Notes under the pieces: generated by a model
Seen by the model: the letters and a program-made list of their open reading frames with translations, nothing else
The model's database searches: none
Told to the model about the DNA's origin: nothing
Made by a program: the position numbers and the translations under genes
Assembly: GCA_951406725.2 (NCBI GenBank)
Contig: OX597831.1
Location: forward strand, 36,146,001 to 36,210,000
From: Octopus vulgaris
Taxonomy: Eukaryota
Direction of reading: 5' to 3'
Length of the DNA: 64,000 bases
Shown here: positions 6,920-61,508 of the stretch, in pieces
How positions within the stretch are numbered: the first letter of the stretch is position 1
How the letters are laid out: the number at the start of each line of letters is the position of its first letter

Positions 6920-7608
6920 AAAATTAATATTTTAAAATCTCATAACGTGAGATATTCAGCAACAGTACTTTCTAGTAAAGATTGTTTGCCAACATAACAT
7001 GGTAGTCCTGGTTTAGGATTAATGTTGCTGTAATTTATCCCCAGGGGACATCGTCTCCAGCAGGCTGAAGCACTCCGTCGGTTACGACGACGAGGGTTCC
7101 GGTTGACCCGAATCAACGGAACAGCCTGCTCGTGAAATTAACGTGTAAGTGGCTGAGCACTCCACAGACACGTGTACCCTTAACGTAGTTCTCGGGGATA
7201 TTCAGCGTGACACAGAGAGTGACAAGGCCGGCCCTTTGAAATACAGGTACAACAGAAACAGGAAGTAAGAGTGAGAGAAAGTTGTGGTGAAAGAGTACTG
7301 CAGGGATCACCACCATCCCCTGCCGGAGCTTCGTGGAGCTTTAGGTGTTTTCGCTCAATAAACACTCACAACGCCCGGTCTGGGAATCGAAACCGCGATC
7401 CTATAACCGCGAGTCCGCTGCCCTAACCACTGGGCCATTGCGCCTCCACAGCAGGCTATACAACATGATCTGTGTCCTAACAGGTTCGAAAATGTAAGGA
7501 CACAGATCGTGAAGTATAGTCAGCTGGAGACGATGTATCCTGGGGCTAAATTACAGCAACATTAATCCTAAACCAGGACTGCCATGTTATGTTGGCAAAC
7601 AATCTTTA
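6920..7608. mobile_element. Foldback element with ~116-bp inverted arms and a one-sided extension
   Basis: After removing the SINE, 6976-7482 is the reverse complement of 7493-7608, with loop GGTTCGAAAA. It interrupts an S1 SINE remnant with an imperfect duplication AATTCTTGACTG/AATATTTGACTG. Confidence 0.75.
7067..7448 (-). mobile_element. Full-length young tRNA-derived SINE, group S3
   Basis: Head GTGGAGGCGCAATGGCCCAGTGGTTAGG (A box) ... GGTTTCGATTCC (B box); tail CCGACGGAGTGC resembles the RTE tail at 34425-34438; 9-bp TSD CAGCAGGCT (7058-7066 and 7449-7457). Confidence 0.9.
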
Positions 7609-7765
7609 ATATTTGACTGGTACTTTATTTTATCGACCCTGGAAGGATGGAATGCAAAATGGTCCTCCGCTGTATTTGGAATCAGAATAAAAAGTATCAC
7701 AAATGCGTTTTTGCGTCAGACCAATGCCGTAATTTAATTCAATGCCATGTTTACTAACGAAAATA

Positions 7766-8005
7766 CTGGTTTCAAATGTTGGCACAAGACCAACAATTTT
7801 GAGGAAGGAGCAAAGATGATTTGTTTGAAAATAGTGTTTCAATAATATTGTCCCAGTACACAACTGATACTTATTTTATCGGTATCGAAAAGATTTTAGG
7901 CAAAATAGACCTCGGCGAATTTGAACCCAGAGCATCAAGGCGGACGAAATACCGCTAAGCATTTTGCCTGGCGTGCTTGGGATTCTGCCAGCTAGTCACC
8001 GTCTT
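7766..8005 (-). mobile_element. S1 SINE carrying a foreign 32-bp insert
   Basis: S1 head and core on the minus strand; 7820-7851 matches 4604-4636. Confidence 0.75.
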
Positions 8006-8164
8006 AGTAACGAAAATAATAAAGTAGCTTTCTATCTTCAGGTTATGAGACGTTGTGGCACAGCCGTTTTGGCGTCGCCGATTATTTGGCATCAAACATC
8101 TTAATGTTTATCTAGTTCTCTCCTCCTTTTTTACTGTTCATGTTCGCTAGCATCTAGTAATGTT

Positions 8165-8510
<346 letters not shown>

Positions 8511-9991
8511 AACTTAGAATAACTTAGAAAGGTTTTGGCCAGTATTGGCCCAGGCCATGTCTAACTTAATAGCACCACCTGGCGAAGTCTTTCAGTTCAG
8601 GATTTGGGCACCAAGGCCCATTCGAGCAGAGAGTTATTGTTTGCGGAGACATATCCGGGTGTGGGTGGTTTGTCCGGTACTGTTTGAAGGAATTTGTCCA
8701 AAGACGTCTTGAATTTTGTGTGGTCAGTTTCTTTTTTGACGTGTCCTGGTGTAATGTTGAAGAGAGCGGGTCCAATTGAGGTGAAATAGTTGTGCCGTAT
8801 TGTCGTTATGTGATGCGATTTAGATTTTTGTTGTGGACGGATGGCACGTGGTCCAAGCCTTGGATGTATTTTGAAGGTGATGCCAACATCATTCGGACAG
8901 TGCTGATGGAATATTTTCCACATCATACAGATAATGTAGCGTTCACGGCGTCGTTGGAGTGAATACAATTTCAGCTTCTCTAGTCTACCCCAGTAGTCAA
9001 GGTCTGACATGCCATCTATCTTTTTTGTGATTGACCTTTGGGGAGCTTCAATTCTCATAATATTTTGTTTTGTGTAGGGAGACCACAGTGGACAGCAGTA
9101 TTCAAGGTGGGGTCGGGCAAAAGTGGAGAAGAGAAGGATAATAGCGTGGAAATCTCTCGACTGGAAGGTTCTGAGAATCCAGGAACACATTCTGCGGGCC
9201 ATGTCAACTTTGCTGCTTATATGTGTAGCCCAGCTTATGTTGTTGTCCACTGTTACTCCCAAGTCTCTGATGTTGTTGGATACCATGAGAATTTCTCCAG
9301 AAGGAAGAGAGTATGGGAGTTTCAGAGCGTCCTCCCTTCCAAAGTGGATCAGTTCGAATTTGTCTTCATTTAGCAACATGTTATTCTTTTCCGCCCATTG
9401 GACAACAGCCAGTAGGTCTGACTGAAGGTTTATTCGGTCATCCACGCCATTGATGACCTTCTGGAGCTTGGAATCATCAGCGAAGGTTCTGATGTTACTG
9501 TGTTTGATGGTGTCAGTAATATCATTTATGTAGATGATGAAGAGAAGTGGGCCCAACACAGTGCCTTGTGGGACACCACTGCTGACTTTGGCTGGGCTGG
9601 ATTTGACTCCTTCGACTACAACATGTTGGGTTCTGTTAGACAGGAAGCACTTGATCCACTTCAGCAGCTTTCCAGTGACACCAATATTGGACAGCTTTCT
9701 CAGAAGGATCTTATGATCAACCCTGTCAAAGGCCTTGCTAAAATCAAGGTAGATGACATCAGTGTTGGAACCTTCTCCCAAGGCTCTCAAAATGTCATCA
9801 AAATGATGCAGTAGCTGCGTCAGGCAATCTCTCCCATTACGGAATCCATGCTGTTTGGGGTTCAGCATATTATGACTCTCAAGGAAGTGAGTCATACGCG
9901 ATCTCAGCACCCTCTCAAATACCTTGATGATATGAGAGATGAGTGAGATTGGACGGTAATTCACGGCAAGCGATTTGTTTCCTTTTTTGAA
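8511..9991 (-). mobile_element. 5'-truncated CR1-group LINE; uninterrupted RT and C-terminal ORF2 (8597-9991)
   Basis: FKKG..NYRPISL, QHGFR, YLDFSKAFDRVDH, SGVPQGTVLGPLLF, FADD, RDLGV, RPHLEYC, PGY...NSL motifs with no stops or frameshifts; short 3' UTR ending (TTCTAAGTTA)x2 then (TA)n; endonuclease absent. Confidence 0.93.
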
Positions 9992-10236
9992 ATATTGCTG
10001 TCTGGGAGATGTCTTATGGTTGTGGAATAGTATTTAACTGCTATTTCTAAATTTCGGTATGTGGTGAAGCAATTTTTGTTGAACCCTAATTAAAAATTAT
10101 GCTTATAATTATAGAATTTTTGTATCAGGTTACCGATAATGGTTAATTTAACATAGCGAACTACTTTGTAAAATTATTAATTGTTAATTGATTAATTAAT
10201 TTTACCCTTTATTATTATTGATAACATATATTTATA

Positions 10237-12599: not shown

Positions 12600-13192
12600 G
12601 GCGGCGAGCTGGCAGAAACGTTAGCGTGTTGAGCGAAATTCTTAACGGTATTTCGCTTGCCGTTACGTTCTGAGTTCAAATTCCGCCGAGGTCGACTTTG
12701 CCTTTCATCCTTTCGGGGTTGATTAAATAAGTACCAGTTACGCACTGGAGTCGATATAATCGACTTAATCCGTTTGTCTGTTCTTGTTTGTCCCTTCTGT
12801 GTTTAGCCCCTTGTGGGTAGTAAAGAAATAGAAATAGGTATTTTGTCTGCCGTCATGTTCTGAGTTCAAATTCCACCGAGATCATTTTGCCTTTTATCCA
12901 TTCGGGGTCAATTAAATAAGTACCAGCTACGCACTGGGGTCGATATAATCGACTTACTCCGTTTGTCTGTCCTTATTTGTTCTCTCTGTGTTTAACCCCT
13001 TGTGGGTAGTAAAGAAATAGGTATTTCGTCTGCCACTACGTTCTGAGTTCAAATCCCGCCGAGGTCGACTTTGCATTTCATCCTTTCGCGGTCGATTAAA
13101 TAAGTACCAGTTACGCACTGGAGTCGATATAATCGACTTATCCCTTTGTTTGTCCTTTCTATGTTTAGCCCCTTGTGGGCAATAAAGAAATA
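12600..13192 (+). mobile_element. S1 SINE head-to-tail trimer
   Basis: One head plus three core-and-tail units joined at AAAGAAATAG|GTATTT; the whole array is bounded by the direct repeat AATATCAAATGGGTG. Confidence 0.9.
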
Positions 13193-14413: not shown

Positions 14414-15301
14414 ACAAATGTCTGTGTTTCCTCTTTCATTATGTCAATCTACGTACAACGTAACAGACATCATTAAACTACTGCAGCGTAACTGTCACAT
14501 GCTTTGATTGAAATCCAAATCTCTCAGTTGCACTGTCTCATGTACTTCTCGCATATCTGAGCTCTCTTCTGTTTCACATACATCGCACGTCTCTTGGCGA
14601 TATACTGCTACCAATTTCAACACGAAAAGTTGTGTCTGTACTTTGTCTAGTCATTCCCCGCTATCACTAACAGCAAAAGGACTTCCAAATACTTTTGGTT
14701 TATAGTCTCTTTAAATTAAATGTAATTTATATATCTCTTTCTCTGCTAACACCTCTTACTACCACCAAATATTTGATAAGAATTTCGCCTCCCACTTTCT
14801 CTTCTAGTCATGAACTAGAAAATTCAGCATTCACAAATGCGTTTCTTTGGTGAATACATATCGAAACTAGGATAAACTATAAAATGGAATTTTGTGGCTA
14901 AGCTTCTTTTAAAGAAGGAAAATATTATGAGCTTTAAATACCATAAACAACAGATAAATTTCAGATGTAATGGTGGATTTTCAATTTCAGCAGAAGCACA
15001 CGTCATAAGCTCGTTAAGGTTAAACTACTATCACACACCCACCTCCAATTTTTCATATCTATTTGCTCTATCATAATAATGCTACCCCGGTCAGATAATG
15101 AAAAATGCAAGCCATTCACCCTGAAAAATTGAGCAGTCAAATGGTTATTCAGATATGTATCGTGGCTTTTAATAAATAAATATAATTATTCTTTTATTCG
15201 TTTACTTGCTTCAGTCGTTAAACTGCGGCCATGCTGGAGCACGAACCTCAAGAATTCTAGTCGATCTGGAGCCTATAGGCGACTGTAAAATACGTGCAGT
15301 G

Positions 15302-15859
15302 AAAGGCGGCGAGCTGGCAGAAACGTTAGTACGCCGGGCGAAATGCGTTGCCGTATTTCGTCTGCCGTTACGTTCTGAGTTCAAATTCCGCCGATGTCGA
15401 CTCTGCCTTTCGTCCTTTCGGGGTCGATAAATTAAGTACCAGTTATGTACTGGCGTCGATGTAATCGACTTAATCCGTTTGTCTGTCCCTTTTGTGTTTA
15501 GCCCCTTGTGGGTAGTAAACAAATAGGTATTTTAGAATGGCGGCGAGCTGGCAGAAACGTTAGTACGCCGGGCGAAATGCGTTGCCGTATTTCGTCTGCC
15601 GTTACGTTCAGAGTTCAAATTCCGCCGAGGTCGACTTTGCCTTTCATCCTTTCGGGGTCGATTAAATAAGTAACAGTTACGCACTGGGGTCGATGTAATC
15701 GACTTAGTTCGTTTGTCTGTCCTTGTTTGTTCTCTGTGTGTTTAGCCTCTTGTGTGTAGTAAAGAAGTAGGTACCAGTTACGCACTTGGGTCGATATAAT
15801 CGACTGGCCCCCCACCCCTAAAATTTCGGGCCTTGTGCCTAGAGTAAAAAGAAAGAAGG
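15302..15859 (+). mobile_element. S1 SINE multimer
   Basis: Two headed units plus the alternative tail; flanked by AATACGTG(C/T)AGTG. Confidence 0.9.
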
Positions 15860-27625: not shown

Positions 27626-30330
27626 ACGACATGGACGAACGCTAGTCAAATGGGCTCCACGTAAGTTGGCCACTTTTACATGTTTAAAACTCCTTGTTGT
27701 CAAATATTTAATTTTAATCGTTGTGCAAGTTCATTCACTAAAAAACCTGAGAATTATTCACGTAGAATTCCGCCCCTGTATGGGCGAAATTACCAAAAAC
27801 TTTCAAAACGTTCGTGGGTTCCTTTAAGCCATTTTTCACTTTGAAAATGGCAACTAGAAACCACATGGCTAGCCCGCCAGTCATCCGGAACGGTAGCGAA
27901 ACACTACTGCTACCACTAGCTGCTAAACCTCGCACCTTGAACACCGCTGTCATCACCACCACCACCAACAAAACTAACGTCGCAAGACCATTCACCATCG
28001 CCGCGACCAAAGACATTAATTTAAATTTCCCCCACTCCCTACACCACTTGTCGATGATAAAAGGACGGGGAAAGGGATTTCAAAAACGAAAACTGACGAA
28101 AACATGAATGCCAGCACCACCACCATCACTACCAACACCAAAAACAACGAAATCAGCACAAAACCGCCTACCAAAGACAACACCGCCTACACCAACACCA
28201 CTACCACGACTTCAGCTGCTACAACTAACCCTACTGCTGCTAACACCGCCAAAATTAAAACGAATTTCGCAGATGCGACAAGACAAAAACGAACAATCGT
28301 AAAATTCACCACACTGGAAATAAACCTCACAAAAGCACTCTTCACCAAAGAAGGAGATAAATTGCATCTTCACATTCCACAACACATCGTGGAAAACACA
28401 CACAAAAAAACAATAATCTACAAAGTCATCAACAAGAAAACAAAACGACCAGAAAATGCACCGCAGGAAAAAATTGAAAAATGCCTTCGTCCTGCATGGG
28501 ACTCTAAAGAGTATATCAGTTGGGGAAATAAATTTGGTACAGTCCAAGTACGTTTCCTCAACGAAAATTTTGCAAAACGATTCTCCACATTGGAGCTGCA
28601 TTCAGACGACTTGGTAATGATACCAATCTATTTAAACAATCTATCTAAACTGGACCGAGATAACGAGTAGGGTGGTCACTCTCGCCCGGCAATGGGCCGA
28701 GAGGAAACTGTCCCTAAAAGGTCGGGCGGAGGTGGCGAACACGTACATCGCGTCCGTCATCTACTACCTATTTCTTTACTACCCACAAGGGGCTATAAGG
28801 TAAAGTCAAAGGTTCTGGTGAGGATCGAACTCACGACCTTCTGCGTGTGAAGCAGACGTCATCTACTACCGCCTGACCGTTGTGCCTTGTCCCGACCCTA
28901 CCATCACCAAACTAGAGTGCATTCTCTTTCGCTTCTTGTGGAAAGGATGCGTCCCGATGGTCAGGTGATCCATTTGCTGTCAACACCCGTTAAAAGGAGG
29001 ACTGGGCATGCCGTGGTTGATGATGCGCAGACACGCGCTGAGACTGCGACATCTGAGGCTCTTCGTAGACGACGGTGAACAGGTGTGGTCGTCGTTTGTG
29101 AGGCACGCTTTCCCGCAGCTCGTCTCCATGACCGAACTGCAATCGTGGATCAAAAAGAGGCCGAGGAAGGTCGAATGGCACCGCGAGTGTCGCGTTGCTC
29201 TCAAGCAACTCTACCGTCCTGGGTCAACCTTGAGTGACTCCATCACAACCAAAGCATTCTATAGGGGATTAGTGGAGGGGAGGTACGACGACGAGCTCGG
29301 GGCGAACCTGGACGTCGACGAGGAATACCTGACCCGCCTGTTCGGGACGACTTTCGGGCCAGGGCCCATGGACAACTTCCAGAGATCCCTGGCCTGGCAG
29401 TGTTACCGAGAAGCGCTACCCGTTCGGGATAAGCTCTACAGACACGGCTCGAGAAACACGGTGCCGACCTGCCCGAGATGCAGTCAGAGTGACGAAACCG
29501 TTCTGCACGCACTCGTGCAGTGTCCAACAATTTCCGACCTGTGGGCTTATGTCGAACAACTGCTGTCACGTGTGGGACGAGTCGGTTTATCAGCTGAGTC
29601 TATCGTCAATATTGTCACGCCTCCTTCCTTCAAACGGGAAGGAAGAGCTATTTTCATCATCCTTGTGGCTATGGCGAAAGAATGTATCTGGTGGACGCGT
29701 CTGAAATGATTGGAGACAAACACTTTCCTCTCTGGTCAACCTCTCATCAACGTCTTCAAGTACCACTTGAAAAGGAAAGTGAGAGGAGAGAGGCAAGTTT
29801 TGTCTAGTGAATGTTTAAAAAAAAGATGGGTGAATGTAGCAAGGATGGCACGTATGAATGACGAAGCCACCTTGAGCATAATCCTATGAACCCAGAAATT
29901 GAAAATAGAGGGTTACCCACTTGCAAACAAATGTGGTAACATATAACAATATTGACCAAGTTTACCGTGTTCTTTTTCGTAGGCTTTTCTTCCCACGGAT
30001 AAACCTTACTTGCTTTCCCCTTTACACCATACATCATGACACTGTGATACACGATCCCTATTGATCGTTTTTTTCCTCTTCCCCTTTTTGTTCTTTTTTC
30101 TTCTTTTTTCATTTTTCTTTTCTTTTGTTCCTTTTCCTTTTTTTCTTTTTCTCTTTTCTTTTTTTTTGTTCTTTTTTTCCCTTTTACGATCCCTTTTGAT
30201 CGAAAACCTACGCCACCTTTTCCTTTTTTTTGTTTCTTTTGTTTTTTGTTTTTTTCATCCCCCAAAAGAAAAGCTCTACCTTGTAACTTGTCCCATCTGT
30301 GTGCAGCCCTGTGTGGCCAATAAAGAAACT
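27626..30330 (+). mobile_element. Internally deleted Tx1-clade LINE inserted in (TATC)n
   Basis: 5' UTR, then ORF1 N-half (ATG 27847, frameshifted, to about 28630), joined directly to the ORF2 C-terminus (WAERKLSLKGRAEVANTYI..KGGLGMP..CPRCSQSDETVLHALVQC, stop 29889). T-rich 3' UTR ends AATAAAGAAACT. (TATC)n on both sides. No APE or RT. Confidence 0.9.
28769..28856 (-). tRNA. Retroposed 5'-truncated tRNA-Val(CAC) fused to the S1/Tx1-type tail (non-functional)
   Basis: Minus strand: TCTGC TT CAC AC GCAGA AGGTC GTGAG TTCGATC CTCAC CAGAACC, then TTTGACTTTACCTTA, then TAGCCCCTTGTGGGTAGTAAAGAAATA; 14-bp TSD CGTCATCTACTACC (28755-28768 and 28857-28870). Confidence 0.85.
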
Positions 30331-31272: not shown

Positions 31273-31952
31273 ACAAAGACAAAACTATCGAACAAAACAG
31301 GTTCACAAACATTGAAAAGCAATATATTAAAAAAAAGAAGAAAAAAGCAAGAAAGATTTCAATCATAGAATATAATTCTAATGACTTGATCTCTGATTGG
31401 GGATTATGCACGTTCATCATCATTAGAAGCTTATTAAGTAAAAACTAATCCACTAAAACTGTCAAGTTGTGGAAGTGGAATGAGTGCATATTTTGTAAGA
31501 GCGTGCTTTTCTTGTCATCGGAGCCTTTTCTACTGTTTAATATAATTTGGACTTCTATTTCTATGCTGTTTATAATTACGTTTACAGTTCGCTACGAAAT
31601 AACGAGTTTTTTCTAGTTTTGTTTCTCGGATTTCTCTTCAACGAAGAAAGTGTCGGTTCCTATTCTAGAAGCAAAACTCTTTTAGTGAAATAAAAAAAAA
31701 AACCCATCAATGGCGTGTTTATGCATGTATATGTGTACACATGTATACACATGTGAAACTAGCTTTTGCAATTTTTTTTCCTGGCTCTCTTTGTTTTCTT
31801 TCTTTCCTCTTCCTTCTCTTCCTACTCTCTCCTGGTCTTTCCAATAGAATCTGACGAAAGACAATGTCTGAAGCGTTGTACATTTGTTCTATAACTGTTT
31901 TCCTTCTCTAAGTTTCGATCCCCGCGTTCAAAATTACAGGCCTTGTGTCTAT

Positions 31953-32510
31953 AAATTATTTACATTATTTACATTTGACGGATATTTGTCCTCATCTTGT
32001 TTGTTGTTAACACAACGTTTCGGCTGATATACCCTCCAGCCTTCATTAGGTGTCTTGCAGAAATTTTGAACCTGGGTTCTCATTCCTAAGGTATTTTTCG
32101 ATGCTATCATCATCATTATTATTGTTATTATTATTATTATCATTATTATTATTATTGTTGTTGTTGTTGTTGTTGTTAATGTTCAGGTCACTTCTTGGAA
32201 TCGAACTCGGAATCTTGGGGGTTAATAGCCCGCGCTCTTAACCACTGCATCATATGCCTGTGGGCATACTAACCCCAAGATTACGAGTTCGATTCCAAGC
32301 AGTGACATGGACACTAATAATAATAATAACATCGAAAAATACCTTAGGAGTGAGAACCCAGTTTCGAAATTTCCGCAAGACACCAGAAGAAGGCTTGGGG
32401 GCTAAATTAGCCAAAATGTTGTATTAACAACAAACAAGATGAGGACGAATATCCGTCAAATGTAAATAATGTAAATAATTTACAGAATTCCTCATCTCTT
32501 AAATATAGAA
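31953..32510. mobile_element. Foldback tRNA-head/(AAT)n/hammerhead element, copy 1 (family E)
   Basis: Inverted arms around ATGCCTGTGGGCAT; hammerhead folds at 32009-32054 (-) and 32379-32425 (+); ~28-nt extension on the right arm only; 11-bp TSD CTTGTGTCTAT (31942-31952 and 32511-32521). Confidence 0.85.
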
Positions 32511-33585
32511 CTTGTGTCTATGTTAGTGAATAAGTTCAAGGTTTTTCAAAGGTTTTCAAACCGTGAACATCAACTTTGTCTCCATACTAATTTTTATCTT
32601 GTCTAATATAACCATTCAATTTCTTTTAAGGATTTGAAAGGGCTTTGGCATCTTCTTACAGCAGATCGCACAATAGCATAGAGGATCCATTGTTGGCACT
32701 TGAAGGTTGTTTGTTTTTTTTTGCCCCACTGTAATATTTGCAGTCTGTTTAATGGGTTGATAAAGGAACGATAAAAAAAAAACGCAGCATGTGAGCGTGC
32801 TCTTCTGTATAAATGCGTAAAAAGAAAGCATTTTGAAAACACCGTGCTTCTGAAACAAATAAATGGATAAACTTGACCATAAACTAAGACATATTGAATA
32901 ATGAGGTCTTAGATACACAATACCTCACTAAGCAAAATAAGAAGGTAATAGCTGGAACGCCTTTAACTGGCACTCTTTTCAATCAGGGCTGAAGGCCAGC
33001 TGATCAACATCAACCATTACTGTTGAATTGTATGAATATATATGATGATACTTAAGGCGTATAATATATTTGGGCCATTCACGAGGTAATTTCATGCATT
33101 TCATTGTATGCATTTTTGTGTGTATATTTGTGTATGTGTATGAGCATTTGTGTTTGTGTGGCGTCGATATACGTTTGGAAATATTTTTAATGCATAAGTA
33201 TTGTGGTTAATATGTGTATATGATTGAATGGAGTGTAAAATGGCCGAATGAATCAGGGTATTAAACTAGTTGCCTACGCCTGTAGTGTTTATATCAACTC
33301 CATGAAAGACATTTAACTCTTCACGCTTTAGCTCAGTCGGGCGTAGAGGAATAACTTTCCATATCTTTAAGAAAGATACTTGTGAGGGATTGGTATTTCT
33401 AAACACACACAGAATCGGTAGATCCATTCAATAAGTGTGCGCGCGCGTGTGTATTCCAGGCTTCTCAGTCGAAAAATGTGCCCCAGCCGAATGCTGGTGC
33501 AACTTCTGTTCCACCCAGCGATCGAATCCTGGATGTTCTACCGAGTAAAAACTATCTTATATATCTAATCTATCTTATCTATCTA

Positions 33586-37574: not shown

Positions 37575-38233
37575 AGGCGGCTAGCTGGCAGAAACGTTAG
37601 CAAGCAGGGCGAAATGCTTAGCCGTATTTCGTCTGTCTTTACGTTCTGAGTTCAAATTCCGCCGAGGTCGACTTTGCCTTTCATCTTTACGGTGTCGATG
37701 TAATCGACTTAATCCCTTTGTCTGTCCTTGTTTGTCCCCTCTATGTTTAGCCCCTTGTGGGTAATAAAAAATAGGTATTTCGTCTGCCGTTACGTTCTGA
37801 GTTCAAATTCCGCCGAGGTCGACTTTGCCTTTCATCCTTTCGGGGTCGATTAAATAAGTACCAGTTACGCACTGGGGTCGATATAATCGACTTAATCCGT
37901 TTGTCTGTCCTCTCTGTGTTTAGCCCCTTGTGGGTAGTAAAGAAATAGGTATTTGGTCTTCAATTACGTTTTCTGAGTTCAAATTCCGCCGAGGTTGACT
38001 TTGCCTTTCATCCTTTCGGGGTCGATAAATTAAATACCAGTTAATCGACTTAATCCGTTTGTCTGTCCTTGTTTTCCTGTGTTTAGCCCCTTGTGGGTAG
38101 TAAAGAAATAGGTATTTCATCTGTCTTTCATCCTTTCAGGGTCGATAAATTAAGTACCAGTTGCATTCTGGGGTCGATCTAGTCGACTGGCCCCTTCCCA
38201 CAAAATTTCGGGTCTTGTGCCTAGAGTAGAAAA
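37575..38233 (+). mobile_element. S1 SINE multimer (4 units)
   Basis: Units joined at AAATAG|GTATTT; the last unit has the alternative tail. Confidence 0.9.
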
Positions 38234-38609
38234 TAATATGTGAACGAAGTGAATGGCAAACAAAGAGCAGAACTCCAATAATATCAGCTAATACATAAAC
38301 AAAAAATGTAGTGCCAATATAGTTAGGAATAGATCTTATCTTCGAAGCTCACAAACTGGTATTATTTCATTTATCTCCCTTGACAGCTCTTCTCTTTATA
38401 TATTTTAAATGCCTATAGAACGAATATATTTTTGTCTTCTAATTGCCAAGATAATAAATATAGCTTAATCAAAATTTTAAGCTCAATTTATTATATATAC
38501 GAAACTTTAGTGCAGCTGTACTCAATCACCATGGCGACAAGCGTCTCTCACTCGTGTGGTTGGTATTCGTAATCAGTGTTATAGTCTTTCTATTATTTAT
38601 AGAAAGACA

Positions 38610-39170
38610 AAGGCTACGAGCAGGCAGAAACGTTAACACGCCGGGCGAACTGCTTAGCGGTATTTCGTCTTTCGTCTGCCATTACGTTCTGAGTTCAAAT
38701 TCCGCCGAGGTCGACTTTGCCTTTCATTCTTTCGGGGTCGATTAAATAAGTACCAGCTACGCGCTGAGGTCGATATAATCGACTTAATCCGTTTGTCTGT
38801 CCTTGTTTGTTCTCTCTGTGTTTAGCCCCTTGTGGGTGGTAAAGAAATAGGTATTTCGTCTGTTTTTACGGTGTTAGTTCAAATTCCGCCGAGGTCGACT
38901 TTGCCTTTCATCCTTTCGGGGTCGATTAAATAAGTACCAGCTACGCGCTGGGGTCGATATAATCGACTTAATCCGTTTGTCTGTCCTTGTTTGTTCTCTC
39001 TGTGTTTAACCCCTTGTGGGTAGTAAAGAAATAGGTATTTCGTCTGTTTTTACGTTGTTAGTTTAAATTCCGCCGAGGTTGACTTTGCCTTTCATCCTTT
39101 CGAGATCGATAAATTAAGTAACAGTTGCGTACTGTGGTCGATCTAATTGACTGGGCCTTCCCCCAAATTT
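38610..39170 (+). mobile_element. S1 SINE trimer
   Basis: Same junctions as the other S1 arrays. Confidence 0.9.
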
Positions 39171-57310: not shown

Positions 57311-57547
57311 AGGATATTACAGACAGTGTTTGTTCCTACAGTAAGATGTGATTCACTTTGTGACTGTCTCTGGTATGTACAATGTCTTCCTAAAACACCC
57401 GGGAAACTTGATATTGGTGTTACGTCTGGAATAAATGATCGTTGTATCTCATTTACTCGTTCAGTTGACTTCCTACGAATCTTTAGCTCTGTTTCAGTGA
57501 ACGAACTGTTGTTAAACAGAAAATTTTTAACACCAGCAACAAGTACG

Positions 57548-57701
57548 GTTCTGTATTTAAGAGATGGAGAATTATGTACATTATTTACATTTGACGGATA
57601 TTTGTCCTCATCTTGTTTGTTGTTAACACAACGTTTCGGCTGATATACCCTCTAGGTTTCATTAGGCGTTTTGGGGAAATTTCGAACCATGATTTTTATT
57701 A

Positions 57702-57785
<84 letters not shown>

Positions 57786-57922
57786 TCACTGCTTGGAATC
57801 GAACACGGAATATTGGGGTTATTAAACCACGCTCTTAATCACTACGCCATATGCCCGTGGGCATAGTGGTTAAGAGCGCAGGCTACTAACCCCAAGATTC
57901 CGTGTTCGATTCCAAGCAGTGA

Positions 57923-58003
<81 letters not shown>

Positions 58004-58172
58004 CAATAATAACAACAATATCGAAGAATACCTTAGGAATGAGAACCCAGGTTCGAAATTTCTCCAAGACACCTGATGAAAGCTGGAGGGTATACTAGCC
58101 AAAACGTTGTGTTAACAACAAACAAGATGAGGACAAATATCCGTCAAATGTAAATAATGTAAATAATGAACA
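57548..58172. mobile_element. Foldback tRNA-head/(AAT)n/hammerhead element, copy 2 (family E)
   Basis: Centre ATGCCCGTGGGCAT (57851-57864); tRNA-like heads 57784-57856 (-) and 57859-57924 (+); hammerhead folds at 57625-57670 (-) and 58068-58113 (+); extension on the left arm only. Confidence 0.85.
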
Positions 58173-60207: not shown

Positions 60208-61508
60208 TTAGGTTGTCAAGAAAGTTCTTGCGGAATTTTTAAATTTGGTATTAAATGATGTATTTTCGAATTAATTTTTGTTAAATTACTTTGACTTTAT
60301 ATATCATTTTAAAGCATGTTTCTCGCTCTATCTAATCGTGCTACTCTTTTTCTTTTTAAATAATTAGACCATTTTTCCGGAACGTTGAATACAACATGGA
60401 CAAAAACAAATTCGCACAATTTTCTTATTCCAGTTCAAGCTAGGCCGGAAAGCTGCTGAAACAGCTCGCGGTATCAACGATCCGTTTGGCCCAGGAACCA
60501 CTACTAAACGTACAGCACAATGGTGGTTCAAGAAATTTTGTAGCGGTGACGAGAGTCTTGAAGATAATAAGCGCAGTGGTCGGCCATCGGATGTTGACAA
60601 CGATCAACTAAGAGCCTTAGTCGAAGCAAATTTACGTACAGCTGTTCGAGAGCTTGCTTCTCAATGAGACGTAACATATACGACAATTTCCAACCACTTG
60701 AAAGAGATTGGAAAAACAAAAATACTTGAGAAATGGGTGCCGCACGAATTGAACGACCCCCCACCCCCCCAAAAAAAATAAAATAAATAAACGCCGTTTT
60801 GAAGTGTCGTCTTCCCTTCTTTTACGCAACACGAAGGACCCGTTTCTCGACCGGATTGTGACTTGCGGTGAAAAGTGGATTCTTTACGACAACCGGCGAC
60901 GCTCAGCTCAGTGTTTGGACACCGACGAAGCTCCACAGCACTTCCCGAAGCCAAAGTTGCACCAAATGAAGGTCATGGTGACTGTTCGGTGGTCCGCGGC
61001 CGGTCTCTTCCATCACAGCTTTTTGGAACTAGGCGAAACCATTACGGCGGAGAAGTACTGTCAGCAAATGGATGAAATGCATAAGAAAGTCCGACAACCA
61101 GCTTTGGTCAATAGAAAAGGACCAATTCTTCTCCACGACAACGCTCAGCCACACGTCGCACAACTGACCATGCAGAAGTTGAACGAATTGGGTTACGAAA
61201 CTCTGCCTCATCCGCCATACTCACCAGACCTCTCACCTACCGACTACCACTTTTTCAAGCATCTCGACAACATCCTGCGTGAGAAATGCTTCAAAACCGA
61301 AGACGATGCCAAACACGCCTTCAACGACTTCATCGCCACCAGAACGCAGGATTTTTTTACGCTGCTGGCATAAATAAACTTGTTTCGCATTGGCAAAAGT
61401 GTGTTGATTCTGATGGTGTTTATTTCGATTAATAAACTTTGTTTGAGCCGAGATATGTGCATCTGAATTTACAGGTTAAAATCCGCAAGAACTATCTTGA
61501 CAGCCTAA
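60208..61508 (+). mobile_element. Full-length (1301 bp) mariner, Hsmar1/cecropia-like, decayed transposase 60396-61432
   Basis: TIRs TTAGGTTGTCAAGAAAGTTCTTGCGGA / TCCGCAAGAACTATCTTGACAGCCTAA; left TA target. Motifs KQIRTIFLFQFKLGRKAAET, WVPHEL, IVTCGEKW (first Asp lost), HDNA, YSPDLSPTDYHFF (DD34D). Several frameshifts. Confidence 0.95.

Follow-up and report, generated by a model that had tools for sequence, protein, structure and literature searches.

Two insertions of one architecture in the window

The window analysed here, a stretch of 64,000 nucleotides from Octopus vulgaris contig OX597831.1, carries two insertions that share one architecture. As the first-pass annotation had described, each consists of two units, made up of a tRNA-like head, an (AAT)n spacer and an arm, that stand head to head. 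The centre of each insertion is the palindrome ATGCCYGTGGGCAT, at 57850-57863 in copy 2 and at 32253-32266 in copy 1. The features are listed below, named after the Penelope-like element (PLE) to which we assign them.

Copy 2
57544..57576, minus strand: PLE tail of ~30 nt, part of the N-terminal coding sequence of the ORF; left unit only, continuing into the ORF in tandem copies
57577..57688, minus strand: left-unit arm without its first ~30 nt, including the 9-nt repeats (reference positions 32-185, 88% identity)
57625..57670, minus strand: minimal type I hammerhead, core mutated (CUAAUGA), GAAA intact
57692..57781, minus strand: (AAT)n spacer
57782..57856, minus strand: complete tRNA-Arg-like head with A and B boxes
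57850..57863, no strand: palindromic junction, formed by the element's own short hairpin at the 5' edge of the head and inverted joining
57857..57926, plus strand: head of the inverted partner, lacking 7 nt at the A box
57927..58020, plus strand: (AAT)n spacer
58021..58168, plus strand: tailless arm, with the ORF start codon at 58039-58041 and the 9-nt repeats at its end
58068..58113, plus strand: minimal hammerhead, CUGAUGA intact, GAAA mutated, predicted cut after 58108

Copy 1
31942..31952, plus strand: left TSD, 11 bp
31953..32103, minus strand: tailless arm, hammerhead at 32009-32054
32104..32181, minus strand: (AAT/AAC)n spacer
32182..32266, minus strand: complete head with 5' hairpin, A box mutated
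32267..32329, plus strand: inverted, 5'-truncated head (without A box) and short (AAT)n
32330..32512, plus strand: arm (degenerate hammerhead at 32379-32425) and tail (32483-32512)
32511..32521, plus strand: right TSD

Several finer points of the initial description held up on inspection. One arm per insertion carries an extension, the tail (57544-57576, minus strand, in copy 2; 32483-32512, plus strand, in copy 1), and copy 1 has an 11-bp TSD (31942-31952 and 32511-32521). Of the core motifs, CUGAUGA survives at 58073-58079, and only the two minus arms preserve GAAA. The tRNA-like heads are likewise present, but they are not symmetric: the plus heads are shortened, by 7 nt in copy 2 and, with loss of the A box, by 27 nt in copy 1. 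We looked for a clean TSD at the ends of copy 2 and found none. No further copies of the head/arm unit were found within the 64-kb window, and at default settings Rfam and ARAGORN called neither a tRNA nor a hammerhead in the two insertions.

The window also contains a far commoner SINE-like family (12600-13157, 15301-15748, 37576-39161 and others; frequently in tandem, with 34 BLAST hits), which is unrelated to the PLE. A weak Rfam tRNA match on the minus strand at 28817-28869 (28.3 bits, against a cut-off of 29) is probably another SINE head. Two open frames were named from their motifs: one of 478 aa (8600-10033, minus strand), which we take to be RT-like, and one of 206 aa (60753-61370, plus strand), presumably mariner-like.

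Anatomy of the insertions across the genome

In the 2.8-Gb genome (227 contigs), a 25-mer from the arm had at least 5,878 exact matches, compared to none for the reversed control, and the abundance of the arm lies far beyond chance. Among 133 arms at loci picked by other queries, 19 contain this 25-mer exactly, which gives a rough figure of 40,000 arms. Arms diverge by ~5-6% from their majority sequence. For insertion anatomy we used 87 loci, drawn by position from the first 100 25-mer matches listed for contig C1; this set spans the first 48 Mb of that one contig and required the exact 25-mer for entry. Three duplicates and eight positions already sampled through other queries were left out; five of these eight have a head start and two are ORF-linked, and the proportions were unchanged.

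We observed 54 head-to-head pairs among the 87 loci, and 33 loci without an inverted arm, ten of them tailed. The tail was present on one side in 49 of the 54 pairs, on neither side in five and on both in none, whereas a hand calculation predicts ~11 double-tailed pairs if the sides were independent. TSDs of at least 7 bp flank 31 of the 54 pairs (mostly 11-13 bp, with a range of 8-14 bp), compared to 3% for mismatched flanks. The insertions end tailed on one side and tailless on the other, with tailed ends stopping at reference positions 183-186, whereas most tailless ends fall in the 9-nt repeats, at 140-158. ORF-bearing copies have the same inverted, one-tailed layout. The one-tail rule (49 of 54, never two), together with the ~12-bp TSDs, supports two-ended priming at two different sites on the RNA. 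An inverted, 5'-truncated partner and a one-sided tail of 30-40 bp are described as standard PLE features in PMC8557442.

Two parts of the original proposal did not survive this comparison. The element had been read as a foldback, but its centre is not fixed: the junction differs from copy to copy. Transcription from both strands, also suggested, would be an accident of integration, as the partner head is usually truncated or missing.

At one locus (L239), the pair is tailless on both sides and its flanks are inverted copies over ~28 nt and not a direct TSD. Among the arm matches listed, a cluster at G000:C2:2734237-2735989 comprises seven on the same strand, six of them ~215 nt apart, and is a possible retrozyme-like head-to-tail pLTR array. 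The position-ordered loci are mostly inverted pairs or solos and not the head-to-tail arrays that characterize retrozymes. At six loci (L005, L006, L010, L018, L023 and L029), the 3' ends of other repeats lie at or inside the (AAT)n spacer, in some cases splitting the head from the arm; these are apparently LINEs with (AAT)n tails. Locus L288 contains seven tRNA genes or pseudogenes (six of them Cys) clustered within 3 kb.

The unit is part of a Penelope-like element

The head, (AAT)n spacer, hammerhead arm and tail almost certainly constitute the pLTR of a Penelope/Poseidon-type element that encodes an RT and a GIY-YIG endonuclease (EN). Coding-like sequence directly upstream of the head was common to 5 of 30 head-selected loci and one arm-selected locus, and a genome search with its translation gave 150 scored matches. 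In all 30 EN-selected loci that were extracted from these matches, one of which is the query locus, the EN stop codon is followed by the head and/or the arm, and the head is present in 29. The arm and tail also encode the start of the ORF. These data bear out the earlier suggestion that the unit is mobilised by a Penelope-like RT/GIY-YIG protein and not by a LINE, as it belongs to the pLTR of an RT + endonuclease element.

The upstream pLTR was seen in tandem at nine distinct loci, where arm and tail continue straight into the ORF. The reading frame of the majority sequence stays open for 832 codons, starting at an ATG in the arm, upstream of the hammerhead, and the N-terminus of a relative from elsewhere (P0003, 55% identical) is the same translated hammerhead motif. 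The order of the element is ORF stop, 30-nt UTR, head, (AAT)n, start codon, hammerhead, 9-nt repeats, tail and remaining ORF. Locus L151 contains a 569-aa open RT + EN frame with the same inverted, tailed partner. Its match to RVT_1 (E 2.7e-6) is just under the curated Pfam cut-off, and 12 of the 13 alignment members match this model. The Pfam GIY-YIG model had no direct match in L151 or L085. The EN is nevertheless a putative GIY-YIG enzyme, a call that rests on the 40% identity across the EN between L151 and a relative, P0069, which bears PF01541 (GIY-YIG). The Cys pair is visible in the translations. By inspection of the L151-L162 translations, a CX2-5CxxC zinc finger is absent between RT and EN; unlike Neptune and Nematis, the element therefore fits Penelope/Poseidon as these are defined in PMC8557442, an assignment made by description. 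A PDB search returned weak RT/telomerase matches only.

A genome search with the Pfam GIY-YIG model retrieved mostly another PLE family, which is not the partner, since arm or head similarity was found in none of its 30 loci. This second, apparently young PLE family is present in many of the places matched (for example L037 and L042), with repeated 781-aa open frames, a C-terminal GIY-YIG domain and a linker zinc finger. It is Neptune-like by the zinc-finger criterion given in PMC8557442, and a U3-A8-type hammerhead variant was seen by eye near L037:2770-2800. In ORF-linked copies of the octopus element (for example L172:1484-1530, oriented), the ~18 nt of UTR that precede the head resemble a degraded, inverted head start; it looks as if the same snap-back process had joined the head to the ORF end.

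The arm contains a minimal hammerhead

A hammerhead had been assembled from the four arms of the window, and this composite is identical to the majority sequence of 15 tail-bearing genomic copies. The majority arm folds into helices I and II in its minimum free energy structure (-13.6 kcal/mol), whereas helix III requires a dimer; the hammerhead is thus predicted to cut as a dimer only. An unmutated core is retained by 89 of 261 distinct arms. Of 80 related loci on metagenome contigs, 16 contain a matching motif, compared to 0-3 in five resampled controls, with a pattern that itself required four paired bases; the related loci differ in their stem sequences.

We next considered where arms are truncated. 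In the position-ordered set, positions 88-97 account for 11 of 43 truncations (binomial P 5e-4, scan P 0.03). The predicted cut site and the bases that follow it (positions 90-95) have 9 of 77 overall (P 0.013), but 1 of 38 in a second locus set. The excess did not replicate there, which leaves the self-trimming of the first-pass annotation a conjecture. A palindrome at arm positions 92-99 is a rival cause of truncations near this site. Genome-wide counts of the cut-site pattern (1,104 vs 815) are dominated by deletions and CpG changes. For the anole PLE, hammerhead cleavage is reported to have needed protein and not to be required for insertion (PMC11167929), and the hammerhead is probably not needed for the octopus insertions either.

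Most copies begin at the tRNA-like head

The head has the length of a tRNA and carries A and B boxes (positive by regular expression). In a comparison with eight tRNA genes of five amino-acid types, it was identical to the genome's tRNA-Arg genes at 50 of 77 and 48 of 75 positions (z 7.3), compared to z values of 3.8-6.4 for the other isotypes. It lies between the ORF stop, ~30 nt away, and the start codon, a site at which a PLE promoter is expected according to PMC6765202 and PMC2377424.

We mapped the 5' ends of 78 head-bearing units, numbering positions such that the tRNA-like base 1 of the head is 510. The ends of 25 units lie inside the head, 37 at 501-514, seven at 480-500, seven further into the ORF and two at 562-570. 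Hence 37 of the 51 units that reach the 5' edge of the head (position 514) stop within 14 nt (501-514). In an independent, hairpin-selected set, 15 of 28 stop at this edge and 13 continue. Palindromic joining does not explain the pile-up at 501-514, because many of the ends join the target or an arbitrary point in the partner. Arms are truncated in 49 of 151 cases, at points spread over ~170 nt that include the hammerhead fold; this fold is more stable than the head hairpin (-13.6 vs -9.6 kcal/mol), yet no comparable stop is seen there. Since the ends join varied sequence and the stronger fold causes no stop, the simplest reading is that the RNA has its 5' end at the head. We consider a transcription start at the head's 5' edge highly probable. 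The head probably acts as an RNA polymerase III promoter as well.

The sense strand contains no run of four or more T in 2,625 nt, compared to 30 such runs of A. Codon shuffling gave a mean of 2.9 runs (P 0.023), and Markov models of order 1 and order 2 gave P 0.09 and P 0.2. TTTT occurs at least once in 39 of 41 related ORFs, the two without it being shorter, and the other PLE family of this genome, with the same T content, has seven such runs in 1.8 kb. The head is retained at none of the nine loci where the upstream pLTR continues into the ORF. These head-less tandems count against a head-initiated genomic RNA, because several would keep the head if the full-length RNA began there.

An A/B-box head between the ORF end and the hammerhead was found in none of eight related loci inspected. 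Across the 80 related loci there was one A/B-box match, which lies upstream of the ORF match and not in the position of the pLTR head. Relaxed ARAGORN settings on these loci produced noise (139 calls in 80 loci). Because related elements show no head in that place, it looks like a lineage-specific capture. In the literature searched, no tRNA-headed pLTR is described; Repbase/Dfam, earlier octopus SINE and genome work, and the library of PMC13282606 may hold the family. What appears to be new is thus the tRNA-Arg-like A/B-box head inside the pLTR of an autonomous PLE, whereas the inverted partner, the one-sided tail and the minimal hammerhead are already published PLE biology.

Short and ORF-linked copies appear to be products of the same element

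To compare the short copies with those linked to the ORF, we examined 34 ORF-linked and 62 short head-start units. Polymorphic sites were common to both, fixed differences were absent, and divergence was similar (5.8% vs 5.3%). With shared polymorphisms and no fixed difference, the short copies look like products of the same masters and not like a separate SINE lineage. They are SINE-like in size and likely in promoter, but fail to qualify as SINEs on independence. The independent SINE of the first-pass annotation is instead the pLTR of the autonomous element itself, with its polymorphisms.

Each of three raw RNA-seq runs contained 7,000-10,000 family reads per 11-13 million reads. These reads were equal on both strands, in runs that are apparently unstranded, and had no defined starts or ends. 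They document presence in RNA only, probably as passengers in host transcripts. In a fourth RNA run, with a different organism code, the family was found as contigs. At L112:1656-1943, part of the endonuclease region, RNA depth was 2-3x that of the neighbouring ORF in two of the three runs and less in the third, which suggests that one host transcript carries this endonuclease piece.

A model for the formation of short copies

Taken together, the insertions are best explained as 5'-truncated, head-to-head pLTR insertions of a Penelope/Poseidon-type retrotransposon whose head likely marks the transcript start and is likely a Pol III promoter, an account that we think is probably correct. The RT/GIY-YIG protein would cut both target strands with a stagger of ~12 bp. 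Both DNA ends would then prime reverse transcription, one at the tail end and the other ~30 nt inside; two-site priming of this kind is reported for the anole PLE in vitro (PMC11167929). Microhomology, or snap-back at the terminal hairpin, would then link the 3' ends of the two antisense cDNAs. If the primed pLTR is one at the RNA's 5' end, or if the template is a short head-to-tail transcript, reverse transcription would run off at the transcription start, and the run-off cDNA would yield a SINE-like copy of 250-350 nt. A bolder version, which we put forward tentatively, has a captured tRNA-derived promoter, a PLE transcribed by Pol III as a whole, a 2.6-kb sense strand purged of TTTT, and internal priming that gives rise to tens of thousands of SINE-like copies. 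Pol III transcription of the entire ORF is in itself conceivable but doubtful.

The same PLE pLTR could also carry the head as a passenger, an old piece of a SINE or tRNA, with transcription by Pol II; the stop would then reflect a Pol II start or a template switch at the hairpin. The pile-up coincides exactly with a hairpin of -9.6 kcal/mol, several copies have snap-back extensions, no head stands upstream of the ORF at the nine tandem loci, and D. virilis Penelope uses a LINE-like, TATA-less internal promoter according to PMC2377424. We still consider a passenger head unlikely, as the stronger hammerhead fold gives no similar stop and solo copies and non-palindromic joins start at 503-510 too. 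In addition, the earliest of the clustered starts precede the A box by 13 nt, and TTTT is missing from the sense strand.

It is much less probable that the short copies form a tRNA-headed SINE lineage of their own, which uses borrowed PLE protein to spread from its dispersed members. The head belongs to the autonomous element, and the 34 ORF-linked and 62 short units share their polymorphisms with no fixed differences and diverge to a similar extent; against this stand the numbers, since short copies are in a large majority (7 of 78 head units reach far into the ORF), and the tailed short copies, whose retained boxes and tail might allow renewed transcription. A DNA transposon of foldback or MITE type, bounded by long terminal inverted repeats, would account for the inverted arms of both window copies and for the TSDs. 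It would have symmetric inverted repeats and fixed ends, whereas the arms here are asymmetric, with one tail, and variably truncated, the junction varies, and an inverted arm is absent in 33 of 87 loci. The arms moreover encode the start of an RT ORF, and this linkage refutes the foldback reading, to which we give next to no credence.

The model of a PLE with a likely promoter in its pLTR would explain how thousands of scattered, short, SINE-like copies arise from one protein-coding element. If the head is a working Pol III promoter, a PLE makes SINE-like copies of its own terminal repeat, which would amount to the birth of a SINE without a LINE partner. Such short copies are likely filed as unclassified SINEs in repeat libraries; one octopus annotation, as given in PMC13282606, has 893 unclassified, recently active SINE families. 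Whatever the promoter, the family offers thousands of junctions for the unsettled question of the origin of PLE inverted ends and one-sided tails (as posed in PMC8557442).

Comparison with known systems

The closest relatives are Penelope/Poseidon PLEs such as Poseidon_Ac (PAc) of Anolis, which likewise has a single ORF with RT and C-terminal GIY-YIG, according to PMC11167929. As in the octopus element, its pLTR with the hammerhead overlaps the ORF start, the ORF beginning within the hammerhead region and containing the tail. A tail of 30-40 nt between two RT start sites and an inverted, 5'-truncated partner are also shared with this group, as described in PMC11167929 and PMC8557442. Compared with these descriptions, only the octopus element has a tRNA-like A/B-box head and an (AAT)n spacer in its pLTR, and most of its copies begin there. 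The minimal hammerheads of metazoan PLEs likewise have a 5-bp helix I, an extra nucleotide before helix II and a palindromic helix III that needs a dimer, and pairs on opposite strands, 100-700 bp apart, were noted before (PMC4209133, for both). We found no structural difference between these, as presented there, and the hammerhead predicted for the octopus element.

Pol III-type promoters and hammerheads also occur together in the short repeats Sm-alpha/Sj-alpha of Schistosoma (described in PMC6765202), the promoter being putative in the octopus unit. Sm-alpha/Sj-alpha are non-coding tandem repeats, whereas the octopus unit is the pLTR of a protein-coding PLE, arranged head to head with a one-sided tail. 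Non-LTR retrozymes, too, are short hammerhead units without coding capacity, and PLE pLTRs are their presumed source (PMC7229834; bioRxiv 10.64898/2026.07.22.740005). Unlike the octopus unit, they are defined by head-to-tail arrays, and a term search of the bioRxiv text on retrozymes returned none of 'tRNA', 'Pol III' and 'promoter'. Finally, Helenus/Ajax and Cassandra resemble the octopus element in having sequence derived from a small-RNA gene inside a retrotransposon terminal repeat; as PMC10886601 describes them, these are non-autonomous LTR elements, in contrast to the octopus element, which is an autonomous PLE.
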